IMG/VR virus record: IMGVR_UViG_3300030103_005378
DNA length: 20,000 nucleotides
DNA from: an uncultured virus (IMG/VR IMGVR_UViG_3300030103_005378)
Taxonomy: Duplodnaviria; Heunggongvirae; Uroviricota; Caudoviricetes
Reading direction: 5' to 3' (one strand)
Each line of letters begins with the position of its first letter. Within the stretch, counting starts at the first letter, position 1. Positions 5,990-16,274 of this stretch are shown in pieces. Both the position numbers and the translations under genes were made by a program. Below the pieces are notes generated by a model. The model had not been told where the DNA came from. It did not search any database and saw only the letters and a program-made list of their open reading frames with translations.

Positions 5990-6033
5990 CTTTTTACTAT
6001 ACACTACCCAGCAAACGAATACGTATATACTAG

Positions 6034-7786: not shown

Positions 7787-7972
7787 ATGAAAAGAGTTGA
7801 AATAAAAGGTACTGACAATAGAGATATTTACACTACAGATGTTATACTAGAAAACAACACAGTGGTAGAAATAAATCCTATTAACTTATTTGAAAATGTA
7901 ATATTAAATAGGGATGAAAGTAAAGAATTGGAATTAATGTTTAATAAATTGGTTAAAAAATTAAAGGAATAG
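7787..7972 (+). CDS. Hypothetical protein
   Basis: 61-aa ORF after promoter element. Confidence 0.75.
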   Translation: MKRVEIKGTDNRDIYTTDVILENNTVVEINPINLFENVILNRDESKELELMFNKLVKKLKE

Positions 7973-8006
7973 TTTAATTTACTAGAAATTTGTATATTGT
8001 ATTATA
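7965..8006 (+). promoter_or_regulatory. Repeated early promoter element 13
   Basis: AGGAA 7965; TTTGTATATTGTATTATA, G at 7992. Confidence 0.8.
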
Positions 8007-8025
8007 ATTAAAAAGATAAAATAAA

Positions 8026-8379
8026 ATGGGAAGAAAATTTAGAGTTATTGAAGATGTATGTACAGGAATTGTTGATTACAGAATTGATGAAGAAATGTTT
8101 GTAGGTGATGAATGGAAAGATTGTTTTAGTGATGTATTTTATAAAGGAGATGTTTATGAAGTAATGAATGATCATATTATGAATGAATTTAAATCTGATG
8201 AAGATGGTGAAATGATTGAACCTGAATTAATGTGTATTAAAGGAAAAAATAAAATTAGTATGGAAGAAGTATTAGATATGAATACTAGTGAAGATGATTT
8301 ATATTATAGTACTATAGGAATGGAATATAGTAATTTTTATTGGGAAGGTTTTAAAGAATTTGTTGAAGAGATAAAATAA
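8026..8379 (+). CDS. Acidic hypothetical protein (DNA-mimic candidate)
   Basis: 117 aa, about 31 D/E vs 12 K/R by hand count. Confidence 0.8.
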   Translation: MGRKFRVIEDVCTGIVDYRIDEEMFVGDEWKDCFSDVFYKGDVYEVMNDHIMNEFKSDEDGEMIEPELMCIKGKNKISMEEVLDMNTSEDDLYYSTIGMEYSNFYWEGFKEFVEEIK

Positions 8380-8421
8380 AGGAATATTTATTTTAATAGA
8401 AATTTTATATATTATATTATA
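8380..8421 (+). promoter_or_regulatory. Repeated early promoter element 14 (G to A variant)
   Basis: AGGAA 8380; TTTATATATTATATTATA at the same spacing (8407). Confidence 0.65.
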
Positions 8422-8468
8422 TTTAAAAAGTTAAATTATTAAAAATTAAAAGTTAAAAAAGGTAAATT

Positions 8469-8882
8469 ATGGGTAAATTAAGTAGAATTGAGTTAGATGT
8501 TGTTAGTAATGAAGTTTATAGTAAAGTTGTAGAGGAAGTTAATGATAAATGTTTAAAAATTGTTAATGAAAATGTTGATTTTAGTTTATTAGAGGAATTA
8601 AGAGAAGTAGAATTAAAAAAGGAAAAATTAGAAAATGAATTAAATGATTTTGTTAATAAGGTTAATGATGAATTTAATATTAGAATTACTTATAATAGTG
8701 TAGGAAGATATGGTTATAAGGAAAATAAAAATTTGTTTAATATTGTAGGAAGTGTTGATTATAATTGTAAAAGAAATATTGAAAAAGAATTAATATTAAA
8801 TGGTATTGATAAAGGAATTGATATTAAAGAATTAATTAATAATATGGTTAAGGATTTTGTAAGTAAAGAATTTAAGAGTTAA
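8469..8882 (+). CDS. Hypothetical coiled-coil protein; gene contains a single C
   Basis: 137-aa ORF; only C is at 8689. Confidence 0.85.
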   Translation: MGKLSRIELDVVSNEVYSKVVEEVNDKCLKIVNENVDFSLLEELREVELKKEKLENELNDFVNKVNDEFNIRITYNSVGRYGYKENKNLFNIVGSVDYNCKRNIEKELILNGIDKGIDIKELINNMVKDFVSKEFKS

Positions 8883-8904
8883 TTTTTAATTATATATAGT
8901 AATG

Positions 8905-8933
8905 GAAGTCCTGTTAAAGGACTTCTGTTATTT
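8905..8933 (+). terminator. Terminator-like hairpin overlapping promoter element 15
   Basis: GAAGTCCT-GTTAA-AGGACTTC followed by TGTTATTT. Confidence 0.65.
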
Positions 8934-8959
8934 AATAAAAATTTGTATATTGTAGTATA
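8918..8959 (+). promoter_or_regulatory. Repeated early promoter element 15
   Basis: AGGAC 8918; TTTGTATATTGTAGTATA, G at 8945. Confidence 0.8.
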
Positions 8960-8975
8960 ATTAAAAAGATAAAAT

Positions 8976-9560
8976 ATGTTTAAGGAAAGTAGTAAAGTAA
9001 AAGAGTTAAAAAGTATTAGGAAAGGTTTATTAAAAGAAAGTAATGATTTTAAAAATGAATTATTAAATAAAATATTTAAAGATTTAAATTTAAGTTTTTA
9101 TGTTAGTTATAATGATTTATATAGTGTTAAAGGAGGTGAGTGTAGAAGGTTAAAAGGATGGATTAGTAATTATAATGATGATGTATATAATAGTTTAAGT
9201 GATAAAAATAGATTAATTAGTGATAATGAAAAATTTAATAAAGTAAAAGATTATTTAAATAGTAAGGATTTTGGTAAATATGAAGTTGAAATTTGTAAAT
9301 TAAGTGATTATAGTTGGTATTGGTATAGGAATTTCTTTTTAAAATATGAAGAAAATTGGGGTAAGAATTGGTTTGATTATAAAAATGAAATGTTAGAAAA
9401 GGAAACTACTTTAATTATTAAAATTAAATGGAAAGGAGTTAATATGAATAGAGTATTAAATGAGGAAGATGGAGGATTTAGAAAAGTAGGTAAATATTGT
9501 AGTGTAACTAGGAAGTGGGTATTAACTGGTGAAATTGAAGATTTAAAAAGAGTTGTTTAA
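8976..9560 (+). CDS. Hypothetical protein; C-depleted gene
   Basis: 194-aa ORF with 5 C in 585 nt. Confidence 0.85.
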   Translation: MFKESSKVKELKSIRKGLLKESNDFKNELLNKIFKDLNLSFYVSYNDLYSVKGGECRRLKGWISNYNDDVYNSLSDKNRLISDNEKFNKVKDYLNSKDFGKYEVEICKLSDYSWYWYRNFFLKYEENWGKNWFDYKNEMLEKETTLIIKIKWKGVNMNRVLNEEDGGFRKVGKYCSVTRKWVLTGEIEDLKRVV

Positions 9561-9583
9561 ATAAAATAAAATAAATATTGTAC

Positions 9584-9625
9584 AGGACCCCCTTATATAG
9601 GGGGTTTTTTGTATATTATAGTATA
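9584..9625 (+). promoter_or_regulatory. Repeated early promoter element 16
   Basis: AGGAC 9584; TTTGTATATTATAGTATA, G at 9611. Confidence 0.8.
9587..9610 (+). terminator. Intrinsic terminator inside promoter element 16 spacer
   Basis: ACCCCCT-TATAT-AGGGGGT then TTTTT. Confidence 0.8.
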
Positions 9626-9639
9626 ATTAAAAAGGTAAT

Positions 9640-9825
9640 ATGTTAGATAAAGAAAAGGTAAATAAAATTTATAATGACTTGTTAGAATTATATAATAGTG
9701 GTGAACTAGAAGAAAGGTTAATTTTAAAAAGTGATGTTAAATTAAGAAGTTTTTTAATTGATTTATGTGGTAGTATTGGTGATGATTATAGTGTTTTTGT
9801 TGATAGAAGTTGTTTTGAGGAATAA
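9640..9825 (+). CDS. Hypothetical protein; C-depleted gene
   Basis: 61-aa ORF with 2 C. Confidence 0.75.
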   Translation: MLDKEKVNKIYNDLLELYNSGELEERLILKSDVKLRSFLIDLCGSIGDDYSVFVDRSCFEE

Positions 9826-9859
9826 GATAATTAATAAGTAATTTGTATATTATATTATA
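9818..9859 (+). promoter_or_regulatory. Repeated early promoter element 17
   Basis: AGGAA 9818; G at 9845. Confidence 0.8.
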
Positions 9860-9872
9860 ATTAAAAAGAGAT

Positions 9873-10334
9873 ATGAAATTTAAAAAAGAATATTTAAAAT
9901 TGGGTATTGTTGAAAGATTAAAAAAATTAAGGGTAATATATTATGGAGAACCATTATTAGGAAGTGGTGGTTATGATTATGGTGAAGAAGATTATTTGGA
10001 TATTAAGGGTGAGGATGATTTAGAATATAGAGTGTATAGTGAGGATGAGGGTGATTTTGATGATATATATTTTGATGAGTGGTTTAGTGATTGTGATGGG
10101 TTTGAAATTGAAGATAATGGTGATGGAGGTGATTATGGATATTATAAATTGGTAGTGGATAAAGAAAATAAAAGTATTAAAGTAATGGCAGTTCCTTGTG
10201 TATTCACTAATGCAGGATGTAGTAGTAAGAGAATATGGGGGTTTGATTGGAAAAGTGGTGAGTTGGTTAGAGAAATAAGTAATGAAGAGGTAAAAGAAAT
10301 GTTAAATAAAGATAAAAGAGCTTTTTGTGGGTAA
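9873..10334 (+). CDS. Hypothetical protein with highly acidic/aromatic core
   Basis: 153 aa; DYGEEDY...DEGDFDDIYFDEWFSDCDGFEIEDNGDGGDYGYY. Confidence 0.85.
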   Translation: MKFKKEYLKLGIVERLKKLRVIYYGEPLLGSGGYDYGEEDYLDIKGEDDLEYRVYSEDEGDFDDIYFDEWFSDCDGFEIEDNGDGGDYGYYKLVVDKENKSIKVMAVPCVFTNAGCSSKRIWGFDWKSGELVREISNEEVKEMLNKDKRAFCG

Positions 10335-10375
10335 GGAATGTTTTAATTAATATTTATTTTGTATATTATAGTATA
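10334..10375 (+). promoter_or_regulatory. Repeated early promoter element 18
   Basis: AGGAA 10334; G at 10361. Confidence 0.8.
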
Positions 10376-10391
10376 ATTAAAAAAAAAACAT

Positions 10392-10574
10392 ATGAATAAA
10401 TTAAGGTTTGTTACGGACGATATTAAAGAGTTAAAAGAATTTAAAGTTAAATTAAACGAATTGGTAGAGGATCATCATCACGGAATACATTTAATTGATG
10501 ATATATTTCACTATATAGGGCAAATAAATAAAACTTTAGATTATGTTATAATGCAGGACGAAGCAAATAAATAA
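10392..10574 (+). CDS. Hypothetical protein
   Basis: 60-aa ORF after promoter element. Confidence 0.75.
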   Translation: MNKLRFVTDDIKELKEFKVKLNELVEDHHHGIHLIDDIFHYIGQINKTLDYVIMQDEANK

Positions 10575-10596
10575 ATAATTCGTATATTATAGTATA
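10555..10596 (+). promoter_or_regulatory. Repeated early promoter element 19
   Basis: AGGAC 10555; TTCGTATATTATAGTATA, G at 10582. Confidence 0.8.
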
Positions 10597-10612
10597 ATTA
10601 AAAAATGATAAA

Positions 10613-10798
10613 ATGAATAAAATTAAATTAGAGAAGGACGCGGGATTAAGATTCCCAGCTGAGGAAGGTTTTTATGGGATAATCGTTAGTGCACGTCCTC
10701 CAATGCATGTTTGGGGAGATAAAATTTATACATTGGAAGTGTATGATAAAAATGATAAATACGTTGGTAAATGGAGTGGGAAACATGATGATTTTTAA
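10613..10798 (+). CDS. Hypothetical protein
   Basis: 61-aa ORF after promoter element. Confidence 0.75.
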   Translation: MNKIKLEKDAGLRFPAEEGFYGIIVSARPPMHVWGDKIYTLEVYDKNDKYVGKWSGKHDDF

Positions 10799-10805
10799 AT
10801 CATTA

Positions 10806-10847
10806 TGGAATTTTAAAATTAATAAATAATTTGTATATTATAGTATA
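10806..10847 (+). promoter_or_regulatory. Repeated early promoter element 20
   Basis: TGGAA 10806; G at 10833. Confidence 0.8.
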
Positions 10848-10871
10848 ATTAAAAATAAATAAAAAAAAGTT

Positions 10872-11201
10872 ATGAAAAAAGTAAGTGTAAAATTAGGACG
10901 ACCTGTTAATGTGAATAGTAAAAGACAAATTAGGTTGAGAGAATTGGAAGAAAAAAGAAAAAATGGTGAGTTGAAAAGAGGACGACCTGTTAATGAAAAT
11001 AGTGTTAGACAAAAGGAACTTGAAAGAAAAAAGTTTAATAGAGAAAATGGAATTGAGTTAAGAGGTAGAAAAGTGAATCCTTTAAGTGTAAGACAAATTA
11101 GGTTAAAGGAATTAGAAGAAAAAAGAAAAAATGGAACTTTAAAATTAGGACGACCTAAAAAAGTAAAGGTTGAAGATAGTAATGAAGTTGTAAATAAATA
11201 A
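10872..11201 (+). CDS. Basic repeat protein with AT-hook-like GRP motifs (putative DNA-binding)
   Basis: 28-aa period; GR(P/K) at residues 9, 37, 65, 93. Confidence 0.85.
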   Translation: MKKVSVKLGRPVNVNSKRQIRLRELEEKRKNGELKRGRPVNENSVRQKELERKKFNRENGIELRGRKVNPLSVRQIRLKELEEKRKNGTLKLGRPKKVKVEDSNEVVNK

Positions 11202-11257
11202 ATTAAGTTAGATAGTAAGGTTAGTTCAATAATGAAAAATGGTTTTTTGTTTGTAAA

Positions 11258-11299
11258 AGGACTAACCTTATTAATACTAAGTTTGTATATTGTAGTATA
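11258..11299 (+). promoter_or_regulatory. Repeated early promoter element 21
   Basis: AGGAC 11258; TTTGTATATTGTAGTATA, G at 11285. Confidence 0.8.
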
Positions 11300-11315
11300 A
11301 TTAAAAAAAGATAGT

Positions 11316-11483
11316 ATGTTAGAAACAATGTTAAGAGGTTATTATTATAAGTCCTACAATTTAGTATTTGTAGATGATATTATTGGTTATGTATCTCAGG
11401 AATGGTGGTATACAAATGGTAAGAAGTATTTGGAGGATGAAGGATTTAGAAAAGAAGTAAGTGATTTAATAAATAAAGTATAA
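11316..11483 (+). CDS. Small hypothetical protein (55 aa, MLETMLRGYYY...)
   Basis: Hand-translated; follows promoter element. Confidence 0.65.
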   Translation: MLETMLRGYYYKSYNLVFVDDIIGYVSQEWWYTNGKKYLEDEGFRKEVSDLINKV

Positions 11484-11501
11484 ATAAAAAAAAGAAAAAA
11501 G

Positions 11502-11726
11502 ATGATAACAATAACAATAGTTTTTATGTCATTCATAGTGAATTGCCATCTGTTAGTTTATATAAGACAAGAACAAAAAAAATACCACAACATTATTTTT
11601 AAAGTCCAAGAGGATCAGTGGGATGAAATAATACAAATAGGACGAACTGTCAGAGCTATAGATAAGAAAATAGAAGACAGTACTATTAATAAAACAGAAC
11701 TTCGGTTTAAAAAGTTTCATAGATAA
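11502..11726 (+). CDS. Hypothetical membrane-anchored protein
   Basis: 74 aa, hydrophobic N-terminus. Confidence 0.7.
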   Translation: MITITIVFMSFIVNCHLLVYIRQEQKKYHNIIFKVQEDQWDEIIQIGRTVRAIDKKIEDSTINKTELRFKKFHR

Positions 11727-11729
11727 ATA

Positions 11730-11771
11730 GGGAATACCAGTTTAAATAGGTAGTTTGTATATTGTAGTATA
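11730..11771 (+). promoter_or_regulatory. Repeated early promoter element 22
   Basis: GGGAA 11730; G at 11757; near-duplicate of element 23. Confidence 0.8.
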
Positions 11772-11787
11772 ATTTTAAAGGGTAAAT

Positions 11788-12084
11788 ATGAAAGATTTTA
11801 GTGGTTATAGTGATGACGATTTGTTAAATGAGTTAGATCATTTGAATTTAGAAATTAGTTGTGAGTTGGGTACTGAAAGAGGAACAACACTTGAGAAATT
11901 ATTTTGGTTAGTAACGAAAGAACTTGAAAGAAGAGGAATAGACCCTATTACAGGTGAAGAAATTATTGTTGGTACTGATGTACTTGATGATGACTATGAA
12001 GAAGATGTTGAGGTTGAGGAGAAAGGTAATTTTGGGTTTGGTAGAGAGGAGGGTAGGTTTGATGAGTATGATTTACCTATTTAA
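11788..12084 (+). CDS. Very acidic hypothetical protein (DNA-mimic candidate)
   Basis: 98 aa, about 30 D/E vs 9 K/R by hand count. Confidence 0.8.
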   Translation: MKDFSGYSDDDLLNELDHLNLEISCELGTERGTTLEKLFWLVTKELERRGIDPITGEEIIVGTDVLDDDYEEDVEVEEKGNFGFGREEGRFDEYDLPI

Positions 12085-12125
12085 TGAATACCAGTTTAGA
12101 TAGATAGTTCGTATATTGTAGTATA
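12084..12125 (+). promoter_or_regulatory. Repeated early promoter element 23
   Basis: ATGAA 12084 (variant); TTCGTATATTGTAGTATA, G at 12111. Confidence 0.75.
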
Positions 12126-12140
12126 ATTAAAAAAAGAAAT

Positions 12141-12344
12141 ATGTTTGAAAAAGAAATGTTGTTGGGATTGAGTAAAGAGATGAAACTAGGATTGTTGGAT
12201 GATGCTAATAAAACTGGTGAGTATACAATCGTAATGCAAATGATGAAGATACTATTGGATGCACCTATAAGTGAGGGTGGTATTAGTAGTGATGAGATAC
12301 AAGAAGTACTTGGTATGAAAAAACAGTACGGTAGGTTTAAATAA
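12141..12344 (+). CDS. Hypothetical protein
   Basis: 67-aa ORF after promoter element. Confidence 0.75.
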   Translation: MFEKEMLLGLSKEMKLGLLDDANKTGEYTIVMQMMKILLDAPISEGGISSDEIQEVLGMKKQYGRFK

Positions 12345-12355
12345 GAAATTGGTAT

Positions 12356-12536
12356 TACTCACCTCGGCGAGAGGAATGACCAAGAAATGGTTGGGTTGCT
12401 TAAAATAGAGGGGAGCAGCGAGGTGAGTATAGATATTTGGTTTAAGGGTTTTAGCCATCAAAATAAAACCCATATCTTTTTTAATTATACAATCGCCAAC
12501 GGCTCTACACCAACCCATGTGTAGGGCTTTAGGTGA
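12356..12536 (+). ncRNA. Candidate structured RNA (three-way junction, terminator-like hairpin, third hairpin)
   Basis: Perfect 11-bp stem 12356-12366/12419-12429 enclosing two small stems; GGGTTTTA/TAAAACCC stem plus T6; GCTCTACAC/GTGTAGGGC stem; no family recognised. Confidence 0.45.
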
Positions 12537-12553
12537 CCAAAAAACAAAAGTAT

Positions 12554-12805
12554 ATGACAAAGAGAGGTACAATAGCAATCATGCAAAAATTAGAGGCGCA
12601 ATCATGGGTAGCACAAGATGAGTGGAAAGAGTTATATGGTACAGATAGCAAGCATTATCGCCACCTAGAAACACGTTGGAAAACATTGTACATGGTACTC
12701 AAAGCGTGCGGATACGATCCAAATTACGATCTACGTAACCAGATGCTCAGCCAAGATATCAAGGGTAGAGGGTTAGCGAGTGCTGGTTCGTATATTGTGG
12801 TATGA
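12554..12805 (+). CDS. Hypothetical protein
   Basis: ORF track 12533..12805; ATG 12554 with A-rich leader preferred. Confidence 0.7.
   Translation: MTKRGTIAIMQKLEAQSWVAQDEWKELYGTDSKHYRHLETRWKTLYMVLKACGYDPNYDLRNQMLSQDIKGRGLASAGSYIVV
12763..12804 (+). promoter_or_regulatory. Repeated early promoter element 24 (degenerate upstream box)
   Basis: TTCGTATATTGTGGTATG, G at 12790; GGT instead of GGA at 12764. Confidence 0.65.
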
Positions 12806-13083
12806 TTAAAATGAGATTTATGGAAAATGTAATGGTGTTAAGGGAAAAAGTAATGGTTAATAATGTAGATGTCAAAAAGTTTGTTCTGTCTAGATACCCA
12901 AATCTTGATATTGCTCAAGTATGGAACAATTGGAACTGTGATACATTTAAGGTGTGGTATAATGATGTAAGTAAATATACAGGTAAGAAAAGAGTGTACA
13001 CACTTACAGTTAGATTAATGGCTGATGGTAGTTTGGTAATTGGTAAGTATGTAAATAATAAGTGGATAACTAAAACTAAGTAA
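12802..13083 (+). CDS. Hypothetical protein
   Basis: 93-aa ORF; start may be 12802 or 12811. Confidence 0.75.
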   Translation: MIKMRFMENVMVLREKVMVNNVDVKKFVLSRYPNLDIAQVWNNWNCDTFKVWYNDVSKYTGKKRVYTLTVRLMADGSLVIGKYVNNKWITKTK

Positions 13084-13084
13084 T

Positions 13085-13174
13085 ATGGTAGTTGGTATAG
13101 CAATATGGGTTGTGTTTATAATGTGTTTTAGTTGTATACTTGGTTATATTTTTTTTAAAAATTTAAATAAATAA
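13085..13174 (+). CDS. Small membrane peptide (29 aa)
   Basis: Hand-translated MVVGIAIWVVFIMCFSCILGYIFFKNLNK; TAATATG junction. Confidence 0.5.
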   Translation: MVVGIAIWVVFIMCFSCILGYIFFKNLNK

Positions 13175-13245
13175 TATGGAAAAGGATAAATATAAATATT
13201 TTAGTTTAATATTAGGTTATATGATTAAAAATTTAAATAAGTAAT

Positions 13246-13380
13246 ATGAAAGTAAAGGTAAAAAAGCATTGGGATATAGACGATAGTTGGTACATAATAC
13301 CAACAATAATAGTAGATTTAAAATGGCAATTTGTTGTATTTAGGTTTTTAAAATTTAGTTTGAATATAGATTGGTGTTAA
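13246..13380 (+). CDS. Small hypothetical protein (44 aa, MKVKVKKHWD...)
   Basis: Hand-translated; TAATATG junction, ends at hairpin. Confidence 0.5.
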   Translation: MKVKVKKHWDIDDSWYIIPTIIVDLKWQFVVFRFLKFSLNIDWC

Positions 13381-13399
13381 GGGGGTAGTACCCCTTTAT
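13379..13399 (+). terminator. Terminator-like hairpin closing the early region
   Basis: AAGGGG-GTAGTA-CCCCTT then TAT. Confidence 0.55.
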
Positions 13400-13678
13400 G
13401 CCGTACCGCGTGCGGCGGTATATATATGGTATATATATGGTAATACTATGGTAATACCGTACCACGCGCGCGGTTGTCAATACGCGGGTATGTGGTGGAA
13501 AAAGCCGGATTAGACACACTCATAAATCGTAAACGATCTACCAATATCGACTAGTATATACGAATATCCCCACGATGTAAACATAATTTTCAAAATGGGT
13601 AATTTTTTGTTTTCCCACGTATCCCAAATCTTTTTTTCATAAAAATTTTTTTTCATCGAACAAAGTATATACAGACAT
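13400..13678. other. GC-rich non-coding boundary element (candidate genome end/packaging site or origin)
   Basis: Two CCGTACC-CG-GCG-CGGT units flanking four 11-bp GGTA repeats; GTATATAC twice; base composition switches here. Confidence 0.5.
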
Positions 13679-14532: not shown

Positions 14533-15348
14533 ATGGCTATTTATACATTAACACCTGCGCAACTTAAGGGAGCAGGAATTTGTAATTCATTTGAACTACC
14601 TTCTTCTGGGAGTAGTCCTTCATATAATAATCAATATTCTTTTGAATTTAGAGAATATCCTTCTGAACCTTATTTTTCAACACCTGATCAATCTATTTTT
14701 GATTTAACTTCTTTATTTACTATATCTGCATGGGTTAGACCTCATGAGTTACAACCACCGGCAGATGAAGTTATAATAGATAAATCAAGTGGTAATCTTG
14801 GTGCAAATTCGGGTAATGGATGGGGACTATATCATGATAATAATGTACCTGGTTTAATGAGTTTTGATTTAAAAAACAGTAATACTAGATTTAGATTACA
14901 AGCATCCAATATTCCTTCAACTGATATTTGGTATCATGTATTAGTTACATATGAATCTCAAGTAGCAAAAATGTATATTAATGGGGTTGAGGAAGATAGT
15001 TTAACAACTTCTTTTGCATCATTAGGAACTAATTCTCAAGAGGTTATAATAGGAGCAACAACACCATCTGGAACTGCTAATTATTCTGGTTCTTTACAAA
15101 ATATTTCTATATGGAATGTTGCTATGAATCAAAGTGAAATAGATGAAATATATAATTTAGGAACCCCAACTGATTTAAATAATCATTCTCAAGTTGCAAA
15201 TGGTATAGCATGGTGGCAAATGGGAGGTAATGGTTTAAGTGGGTCATTTTCTGGGAATTGGACTGAATTGAATTGTTTTGATAATGCAAGTTACATTATG
15301 ACCTCAGCTAATGTATTAGAAACAGATAGAATAGAAGAAACTCCATAA
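14533..15348 (+). CDS. LamG/concanavalin-A-like jelly-roll domain protein
   Basis: FTISAWV, WYHVLVTY, MYINGV, IIGA and GSLQNISIWNVA are typical of Laminin_G_3. Confidence 0.9.
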   Translation: MAIYTLTPAQLKGAGICNSFELPSSGSSPSYNNQYSFEFREYPSEPYFSTPDQSIFDLTSLFTISAWVRPHELQPPADEVIIDKSSGNLGANSGNGWGLYHDNNVPGLMSFDLKNSNTRFRLQASNIPSTDIWYHVLVTYESQVAKMYINGVEEDSLTTSFASLGTNSQEVIIGATTPSGTANYSGSLQNISIWNVAMNQSEIDEIYNLGTPTDLNNHSQVANGIAWWQMGGNGLSGSFSGNWTELNCFDNASYIMTSANVLETDRIEETP

Positions 15349-15821: not shown

Positions 15822-16274
15822 ATGAAAAGAATTACAAATGAAGAAGCTAAAAAATTTGTACCTTACGATCGCACTCGCACTTCACTTCCCCCTTCACATT
15901 TTACGGTTAAAGTTGAAAAAAATGGTTGGGAAAAAATAGAATACTATACTTATAGATTAAGACAAAGCATAGATGGAGGGAATGGAGATCAATCAGTATA
16001 TGTTCTAGAAAATCCCTCAATGCCAGGTATATTAAAAATAGGATATACTAAGGGTGACCCAAATGATAGAGCCGATAAGTTAAGTAAAGCAACAGGTGTT
16101 CCAACCCCATATAAAGTAGTATTTTCTTATAATTGTTTTAATGGTGAAAGAATTGAACGGGCTACTCATAAAAAATTACAAAAATATCGTATAAATAATG
16201 ATAGGGAATTTTTTAAGATTGATATAGAAAAAACAAAAAGTGTTATTAAAGAAATAGGTTTACAATATGATTAA
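15822..16274 (+). CDS. GIY-YIG nuclease-family protein, T5orf172 domain
   Basis: VYVLENPSMPGILKIGYT, R..L..ATGVPTPY and E...H..L..R....REFF motifs. Confidence 0.88.
   Translation: MKRITNEEAKKFVPYDRTRTSLPPSHFTVKVEKNGWEKIEYYTYRLRQSIDGGNGDQSVYVLENPSMPGILKIGYTKGDPNDRADKLSKATGVPTPYKVVFSYNCFNGERIERATHKKLQKYRINNDREFFKIDIEKTKSVIKEIGLQYD

Follow-up and report, generated by a model that had tools for sequence, protein, structure and literature searches.

How does a phage come to write protein-coding genes almost without cytosine, and what keeps them in that state? The question is raised by a 20,000-nucleotide stretch of DNA, here called the window, from an uncultured Caudoviricetes virus (IMG/VR record IMGVR_UViG_3300030103_005378); it is the reverse complement of positions 51437-71436 of a genome assembled as one contig of 156,273 bp. 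Five consecutive genes on its + strand (8026-10334) contain only 8, 1, 5, 2 and 9 C, which amounts to 0.2-2.3% of their letters. This composition is unique in the genome, conserved in distant relatives, tied to one subclass of promoter-like elements and accompanied, elsewhere on the contig, by genes for DNA base modification. The C-free gene block may be a previously undescribed biological feature; we tentatively attribute it to a cost that each C would carry when the genes are transcribed.

A sequence-only reading of the window had drawn attention to positions 8313-10188, where its hand count gave about 20 C in 1876 nt, with ten located by two hairpins. The exact composition of this interval on the + strand is A 797, T 680, G 379 and C 20, compared with A 8181, T 6255, G 3657 and C 1907 in the whole window, and 10 of the 20 C are indeed part of, or adjacent to, two hairpins downstream of stop codons (8905-8925 and 9584-9608). 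The individual C are found at 8689, 8910, 8911, 8922, 8925, 9335, 9406, 9409, 9508, 9526, 9583, 9588-9592, 9678, 9706, 9951 and 9952; the residual C outside the hairpins fall in a few conserved codons. Counting also bears out the two C-free runs that had been reported, 8313-8688 (376 nt) and 8926-9334 (409 nt), the single C in the gene at 8469-8882, the five C in the gene at 8976-9560 and the normal C content beyond 13.7 kb, where genes contain 12-15% C. Only the limits of the block had been drawn too narrowly: the depletion is real within them, is extreme over 8000-10340 and continues in partial form (4-9% C) out to ~13400.

Nothing comparable occurs elsewhere in the genome. All of the 12 longest C-free runs of the 156,273-bp contig fall within 7886-13266 of the window, and just 2 of the 157 one-kb bins fall below 3% C, both of them in the C-poor block. 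At the local C content of 9.5%, a C-free run of 409 nt has a probability of ~2e-18. The longest run without G, anywhere in the genome, is 73 nt. Assembly error, a possibility that the sequence-only reading had asked to be checked, does not explain the block: contigs from the DNA run of an independent study (X5) are identical to the window over 7805-8596 and 9533-9829, the same block is present in several independent IMG/VR contigs, and marine metagenomes of 12 studies contained all or part of the stretch. The window and the genome contig differ at a single base, position 6002, which is C in the former and T in the latter.

The depletion follows a class of promoter-like elements. Before each gene stand a conserved element, TTYGTATA-N6-TATAAT, and a brief leader rich in A, and 29 of the 41 matches to TTYGTATA on the + strand lie between -4445 and 15374 in window coordinates, mostly directly before a small gene. 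This family of ~29 elements (TTYGTATA-N6-TATAWW, one per small gene) consists of two subclasses. Class a, sited upstream of ~7800, follows the spacer with TATAAAT or TATATTT and in most cases has TTCG as its core; class b, ending in …TATAATTAAAA, is found at 7989-12787, and the C-poor zone coincides with it. The core reads TTTGTATA at 7989, 8942, 9608, 9842 and 10358 and mostly TTCGTATA upstream, a switch that the sequence-only reading had seen correctly. We compared the two classes across the present genome and 20 loci related to it. The class-b motif had served to identify these loci, and the classes were compared within the same loci. Fewer than 3% C in the 300 nt downstream was found in 20 of 100 class-b units and in 0 of 69 class-a units, with median downstream C contents of 6.0% and 10.3%, respectively. 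Along the units, C content showed no gradient with distance from the promoter. The C of the promoter core is itself often replaced: the core is TTTG in 14 of 20 units with <3% C and in 5 of 52 units with at least 6% C, counts in which the units are partly orthologous and hence phylogenetically not independent. Neither of two general promoter models fits the element: a sigma-70 scan was not enriched (52 sites versus 43.4 ± 6.2 in shuffles), and a Bacteroidetes-type consensus (TTG…TAnnTTTG) gave 10 matches versus 5-14 in shuffles.

Read from left to right, the block is a series of short units on the + strand, in which we assign the promoter role of the class-b elements from their conserved position before genes. 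The first C-poor unit begins with a putative class-b promoter at 7989-8015 (TTTGTATAttgtatTATAATTAAAAAG), followed by a gene for a 117-aa protein of no known family (8026-8379; 8 C, 2.3%; isoelectric point (pI) 4.15), which has orthologues in the related loci L028 (90% amino-acid identity) and L042 (73%). A degenerate element without G or C at 8400-8431 (aaattttatatattatattatatttaaaaag), regarded as promoter-like by its likeness to class b, precedes the gene for a 137-aa protein of a conserved family (8469-8882; 1 C, 0.2%). Past its stop codon lies a hairpin, GAAGTCC/GGACTTC with a T-rich tail (8905-8934), which holds 4 of the block's C; it is a candidate terminator, although it was not among the sites returned by the scan for consensus terminators. 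The next class-b element (8942-8968) precedes a conserved gene encoding 194 aa (8976-9560; 5 C, 0.9%, in four ACT Thr codons and one TTC; pI 9.15), which is followed by an intrinsic-terminator-like hairpin with a T run at 9584-9608 (AGGACCCCC…GGGGGTTTT; 10 pairs, 5 of them GC, in the terminator scan) that holds another 6 of the C. A further class-b element (9608-9634) overlaps the tail of this terminator and is followed by a 61-aa gene that encodes no Pro, Thr, Ala, His or Gln (9640-9825; 2 C, 1.1%), and the element at 9842-9868 precedes the last gene, for a very acidic protein of 153 aa (9873-10334; 9 C, 1.9%; 36 Asp and Glu residues, pI 4.46). The class-b cluster continues with partial depletion from 10358 to 13400, where some genes have 4-9% C and others are normal, and where further + strand class-b elements lie at 10358, 10579, 10830, 11282, 11754, 12108 and 12787. 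No Rfam family was found in the window.

Contigs of relatives that are 88-99% identical, from three RNA libraries of two studies, cover genes of the block (X16, for instance, spans 9249-9848, and X18 spans 8502-8852). Such contigs show neither strand, ends nor level and may include carried-over DNA, and they are only compatible with transcription. Because the arrangement is T4-like, we refer to the units as early genes, a timing that the layout suggests.

The near-absence of C from the coding strand means that the proteins are nearly confined to 15 amino acids. Pro, Thr, Ala, His and Gln together make up 16 of the 662 residues of the five block proteins (2.4%), versus 19.75% in the remaining proteins of the genome, and Gln, at 3.5% elsewhere, is absent (0/662); Cys, Trp, Val and Tyr are enriched. 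Serine is kept at nearly its usual frequency (6.5% versus 7.05% elsewhere) by a change of codons: AGT serves for 42 of 43 Ser in the block, whereas TCN makes up 74% of Ser codons in the rest of the genome. Leu is encoded by TTR in 55 of 56 cases, the exception being one CTA, and Arg by AGR in 26 of 26, so that the nearly exclusive use of AGT, TTR and AGR described from the sequence is accurate. Codons of the NNC type whose tRNA also reads NNT are depleted as well, with 4 present versus ~45 expected from genome usage by our own arithmetic. This excludes a tRNA-supply model, in which codons read by the same tRNA should not differ, and equally a preference at the protein level; the cause lies at the level of the nucleotide. 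The phage carries five tRNA genes of its own (contig 79489-80716), for Ala(UGC), Gln(UUG), Asp(GUC), Glu(UUC) and Leu(UAA), and two of these amino acids, Ala and Gln, are among those that the C-free genes shun.

The trait has been kept while the sequences around and within it diverged. In the relatives L028, L038 and L042, the block is 92-96% identical at the DNA level (4-8% diverged), and C is involved in 9 of 117, 5 of 60 and 11 of 143 mismatches, respectively, versus 26-38% of those in the flanks; in the comparison with L028, T/C transitions account for 4 of the 117 mismatches in the block versus 49 A/G transitions. A distant relative, L026, whose core genes are ~70% identical at the DNA level, has the same layout of promoter, C-free gene and C-rich hairpin. 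Its orthologue of the 137-aa protein is 36% identical and is encoded with 0 C in 414 nt, and for its orthologue of the 194-aa protein the values are 41% identity and 1 C in 417 nt. The C-rich hairpins are retained in every relative. The sequence-only reading had named syntenic relatives as the place to look, and the depletion is present in them, including the divergent L026. Unrelated C-free genes also stand at class-b promoters, two in L011 (2 C each) and one in L013 (96 aa, 0 C), and several unrelated C-free gene families occupy this locus in L011, L013 and L028. The trait therefore belongs to the locus or promoter class and not to one protein.

Homologues collected as cluster representatives from a set of 5.8 billion proteins extend this conservation further. 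The 137-aa family has 85 representatives, 77 of which lack Pro, Thr, Ala, His and Gln altogether (20 such residues in 11,554). In the 102 representatives of the 194-aa family these amino acids account for 362 of 19,577 residues, and 343 of the 362 are Thr, located at a small number of conserved sites. Protein length is preserved in both families, and their alignments contain invariant columns. In the cultured phage immuto, the syntenic position is occupied by a C-poor gene, gp143, with 5 C in 357 nt, and the phage's four longest C-free runs (158, 117, 99 and 90 nt; first 100 kb of the record) are all at the gp143 locus. The ratio of nonsynonymous to synonymous substitution rates (dN/dS), by a standard count for four block genes against L028 and L042 (the 153-aa gene has no orthologue there), is ~0.5-2.9, a range that serves only qualitatively because it is inflated by the barring of T/C synonymous changes; it suggests fast protein evolution in the block.

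The explanation that we favor, with a probability of about 40%, is a cost attached to each C at transcription elongation, for which two agents are candidates, such that selection keeps it possible to transcribe these units with neither cytidine triphosphate (CTP) nor a G in the template. A sense strand without C necessarily leaves a template strand without G. In these short, separately promoted units, whose sense strand would be held C-free by natural selection, RNA polymerase can copy the whole frame from ATP, GTP and UTP without reading a template G; the first C:G positions that it encounters are those of the hairpin past the stop codon. If each C:G position exacted a small cost during the first reading of the infecting genome, the most needed genes could be driven to zero C. 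That C falls to exactly zero in several genes and in several lineages suggests that every C is costly, rather than that a motif is avoided.

The first agent would be the phage's own DNA. Were G replaced throughout it, no template in the injected DNA except a G-free one would be unmodified, and the units could act as "boot genes". The second would be a host attack on the incorporation of C, for example by the chain-terminating CTP analogue ddhCTP (3'-deoxy-3',4'-didehydro-CTP) or by depletion of CTP. Prokaryotic viperins make ddhCTP, and CTP depletion is also a possible defense. The fact that genes go to zero, and not merely to low, C counts for this second agent, because its cost would be levied on each C. 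The composition does not tell the two agents apart, and the nature of the cost is something that we infer. Two alternatives offered from the sequence alone, CTP-directed defense and C-requiring RNases, fit the data better than the restriction avoidance that it preferred, and they overlap with the explanation given here.

The gene content of the phage bears on the first agent. Among 109 larger proteins, Pfam identified a Gp23 capsid protein, a T4 portal, a T4-type large terminase, gp32 and two sheath genes, as well as a family B DNA polymerase, ribonucleotide reductase and GroEL, and 158 of 161 larger open reading frames lie on one strand. By these markers the phage is a T4-like myovirus, and a CHU_C type IX secretion domain points to a probable Bacteroidota host. 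The genome is syntenic with immuto through its replication genes, 7-deazaguanine cluster, GroEL, glycosyltransferases, DUF932, small genes, T5orf172, phosphohydrolase and baseplate. The T5orf172/MUG113 domain gene of the window (15822-16274; GIY-YIG-like, of homing-endonuclease type) has a syntenic immuto counterpart in gp123. Elsewhere, four Laminin_G_3 (concanavalin-like) paralogues are found at window 14533-15348 and contig 145460-147713, the one at 14533-15348 matching virion structural proteins in PHROG.

The 7-deazaguanine cluster (contig 109647-117840, - strand) adjoins the family B DNA polymerase and encodes a MazG-like PRA-PH hydrolase, FolE2 (where immuto has FolE), a phosphoribosyltransferase, QueE, QueD and QueC, with a DpdA3-like gene ~3 kb away. 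Identity to the immuto proteins is 75% for QueC, 69% for QueD, 66% for QueE and 36% for DpdA, and all 18 records in the phage collection that match this DpdA are DpdA3 of immuto and the CP220 group. According to PMC10516641, DpdA3 fully replaces G in CP220 (by dADG), phiST (dDG) and immuto (fdPreQ1), and the DNA of immuto withstands enzymes whose sites include G. Homologues of QueF and DpdN were not found in the present genome, so its modified base is probably a preQ0/CDG-derived form, as predicted from the gene set, rather than the fdPreQ1 of immuto. PMC4838386 reports that bulkier 7-substituted 7-deazaguanines in the template block the RNA polymerases of E. coli and B. subtilis in vitro, and that shortened transcripts were not seen. 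QueC was found in three of five related records, which are fragmentary and hence uninformative on whether QueC and the block occur together. In the literature consulted, no link between 7-deazaguanine modification and base-free gene blocks was found described.

Several observations weigh against a cost at elongation. As regards the phage's own DNA, windows of 158 letters without C on either strand number 0 in CP220 and only 1 in immuto, and neighboring genes with promoters of the same family carry 6-12% C. The lack of shortened transcripts in PMC4838386 implies inhibition at initiation and not at elongation. QueF and DpdN are absent, and the replacement of G in this phage is a prediction. As regards host attack, nothing links a viperin or a CTP-depleting system to the host, and the remaining genes of the phage would stay vulnerable. 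The C of the promoter itself, which lies outside the RNA of its own unit, is also lost, and this could point to a cause at the DNA level. Finally, the weak protein constraint suggested by dN/dS makes a mutational origin harder to exclude.

Of the other explanations, the one that survives best, though we consider it unlikely, places the benefit after transcription: mRNA without C would escape endoribonucleases that cut at C-containing motifs, or RNA cytidine deaminases, active during infection, and the genes would be countermeasures against them. MazF-type enzymes cut at ACA or UAC and MqsR at GCU. It would fit that the trait follows transcription units, that residual C are mostly past the stop codons, and that the products are small, mostly acidic (four of five with pI 4.2-5.0), fast-evolving orphans of the kind typical of anti-defense genes; zero C would also give blanket immunity whatever the motif. 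Avoiding a motif, however, does not call for zero C, an ACA remains in the first gene (8062), and no RNase or antitoxin homology was found by Pfam, PHROG or fold searches.

A second group of explanations is set at the DNA level. Damage at C in the exposed non-template strand, by a host single-stranded-DNA cytosine deaminase or by spontaneous deamination and uracil excision, would account for a strand-specific trait that is linked to a promoter class, for the frequent loss of the promoter's own C, for the rise of T as C falls and for the enrichment of Cys, Trp, Val and Tyr, which matches C-to-T paths. No link to a deaminase is known, however, C content is flat with distance from the promoter, and the C-rich hairpins are kept in all relatives, so that we regard this cause as quite improbable.

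Mutation alone, an extreme C-to-T bias on the non-template strand of highly transcribed units that brings no benefit, is slightly less probable again in our judgment. The direction is right, since it is that of the genome-wide coding-strand skew (G > C); the amino-acid shifts match C-to-T paths, and dN/dS is near 1. The magnitude is not: with no more than ~3 non-conserved C among 680 T sites, C-to-T would have to be ~200 times T-to-C, versus ~5 times genome-wide by our own estimate from NNC/NNT codons. Nor does the bias explain why Ser was kept through TCN-to-AGT, which takes two changes, neither of them C-to-T, or why Gln was wholly lost although C-to-T turns Gln codons into stops. Terminator C runs are conserved, as are the exact length and the invariant columns of both protein families. 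The strand-biased deamination that had been listed among the alternatives is accordingly disfavored, the direction of the skew fitting while its magnitude, the Ser switch and the loss of Gln stand against it. We infer that selection rather than mutation maintains the trait.

Somewhat less credible still is a benefit from unstructured mRNA, in which the lack of C would prevent G-C pairs and leave messages open for initiation without a Shine-Dalgarno sequence, or in the cold. Predicted folding is indeed weaker in the block (-0.107 to -0.130 kcal/mol per nt) than in 12 genes outside 8000-10340 (-0.144 to -0.205), and the partly depleted gene at 10872-11201 is also at -0.130 kcal/mol per nt. Yet whole genes are depleted and not just their starts, low structure needs no zero C, and losing G would weaken structure more, since G-U pairs would go too. 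This 109-aa gene at 10872-11201 contains internal direct repeats (10914-10988 matches ~11090-11156 when cross-aligned with relatives) and is variable among relatives.

We hold it just as remote that the block is first-injected DNA purged of restriction sites after the manner of T5, the inference to which the sequence-only reading had been led. Its logic was correct in that a C-free strand cannot hold palindromes containing G:C, and the block does have 9 GC-containing 4-mer palindromes versus 53 and 38 in flanks of equal size. The comparison of observed with expected palindromes that it proposed reveals no depletion beyond composition: composition-preserving shuffles contain 9.0 such 4-mers, and 4.2 GC-containing 6-mers versus 6 observed, so there is no palindrome avoidance as such, and AT-only palindromes are not avoided either (224 4-mers versus 208 in shuffles, 72 6-mers versus 62). 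Restriction avoidance has no need of an asymmetry between strands, whereas the depletion is strand-specific and follows promoter class. Contig ends overlap by ~87-117 nt with a 30-nt ambiguity of register, which points to a circular assembly and suggests a short tandem repeat at the junction; with a T4-type large terminase in addition, a fixed first-entering end is not evident. Purging of G-containing sites would moreover be redundant beside the G-replacing modification genes, because in the cultured relative the DpdA3 system replaces all G and blocks enzymes that have G in their sites. The T5 analogy is unsupported.

The products of the block give few clues of their own. With pI values of 4.15-4.99, four of the five proteins are acidic, whereas the 194-aa protein (pI 9.15) is basic. 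AlphaFold2 confidently models the 137-aa protein as a long helical hairpin with a small alpha/beta part (predicted local distance difference test score, pLDDT, 83.6) and the 194-aa protein with a pLDDT of 74.1; neither model had a Foldseek match in the PDB at E<=0.001. Pfam matched none of the five, PHROG gave none with a significant domain (one whole-protein E value of 0.0086), and ESM Atlas returned only scores <=0.75 or template-modeling scores <0.5, the 153-aa protein having no usable match. We consider that the orphan status and fast evolution of these proteins would fit roles in host takeover or counter-defense.

Phrase searches of the literature, which leave most subscription journals outside their coverage, found no description of cytosine-free phage genes; judged by titles and abstract openings, neither did a search on ddhCTP. 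The block may reveal how a phage under attack has its first transcripts produced. If a per-C cost at transcription is indeed the cause, conflict between phage and host would extend to single nucleotides during transcription, the C-free state would be a sequence signature for the genes that a phage needs first, which are likely counter-defense genes, and proteins with a 15-amino-acid alphabet would be a by-product of three-letter genes. That boot genes represent a general viral strategy, in which the first-needed genes can be transcribed with one nucleotide missing despite a block set by the host or by the phage's own base, is a possible extension that we regard as rather doubtful. Work on the block would link, or cleanly separate, the replacement of bases in phage DNA and immunity based on nucleotide analogues. 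Its natural, conserved proteins with predicted folds (AlphaFold2 pLDDT 74-84) and nearly without Pro, Thr, Ala, His and Gln are also relevant to the design of reduced alphabets and to early genetic codes. Experiments are feasible with Flavobacterium LMO8 and immuto, a cultured relative that has one such gene, gp143, and a cultured member of the clade in which complete replacement of G has been measured.

The block can be compared with several known systems. The acidic DNA mimics of the Ocr/ArdA type share with it neither a fold, in the 137-aa and 194-aa models, nor a family match. The first-step-transfer (pre-early) region of T5 is likewise a short block of small early-type genes from which many restriction sites are missing, and this is how the present block resembles it; none of the five block proteins has Pfam or PHROG homology to T5 pre-early proteins, however. 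The T5 region lies, within a terminal repeat, at the genome end that enters first; in the present assembly the contig ends overlap and the terminase is of T4 type. In layout the block matches the T4-type early gene cluster, in which numerous small, separately promoted genes lie between the replication and structural modules. DpdA3-modified phages are alike in having QueC, QueD and QueE, a GTP cyclohydrolase, a DpdA3-like DpdA and, for immuto, synteny; the modification genes of the present phage form a separate locus ~50 kb from the block, and Campylobacter phage CP220, in which G is fully replaced, has no such C-free block. Szybalski's rule, purine loading and the GC skew of coding strands describe asymmetries linked to transcription, and the genome-wide excess of G over C and A over T on the coding strand is of this kind, but ordinary skew is not known to remove a base. 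Here G:C reaches 20:1 over 2.3 kb, with a C-free run of 409 nt and five amino acids nearly lost, at one promoter subclass. The G-less cassette of the laboratory, a man-made, non-coding template that needs three nucleoside triphosphates, is similar in being a unit that is fully transcribed with one of them missing and that meets the missing letter only at its end. In the phage block the missing letter is C, and the units are natural, conserved and protein-coding, apparently kept in that form by evolution.

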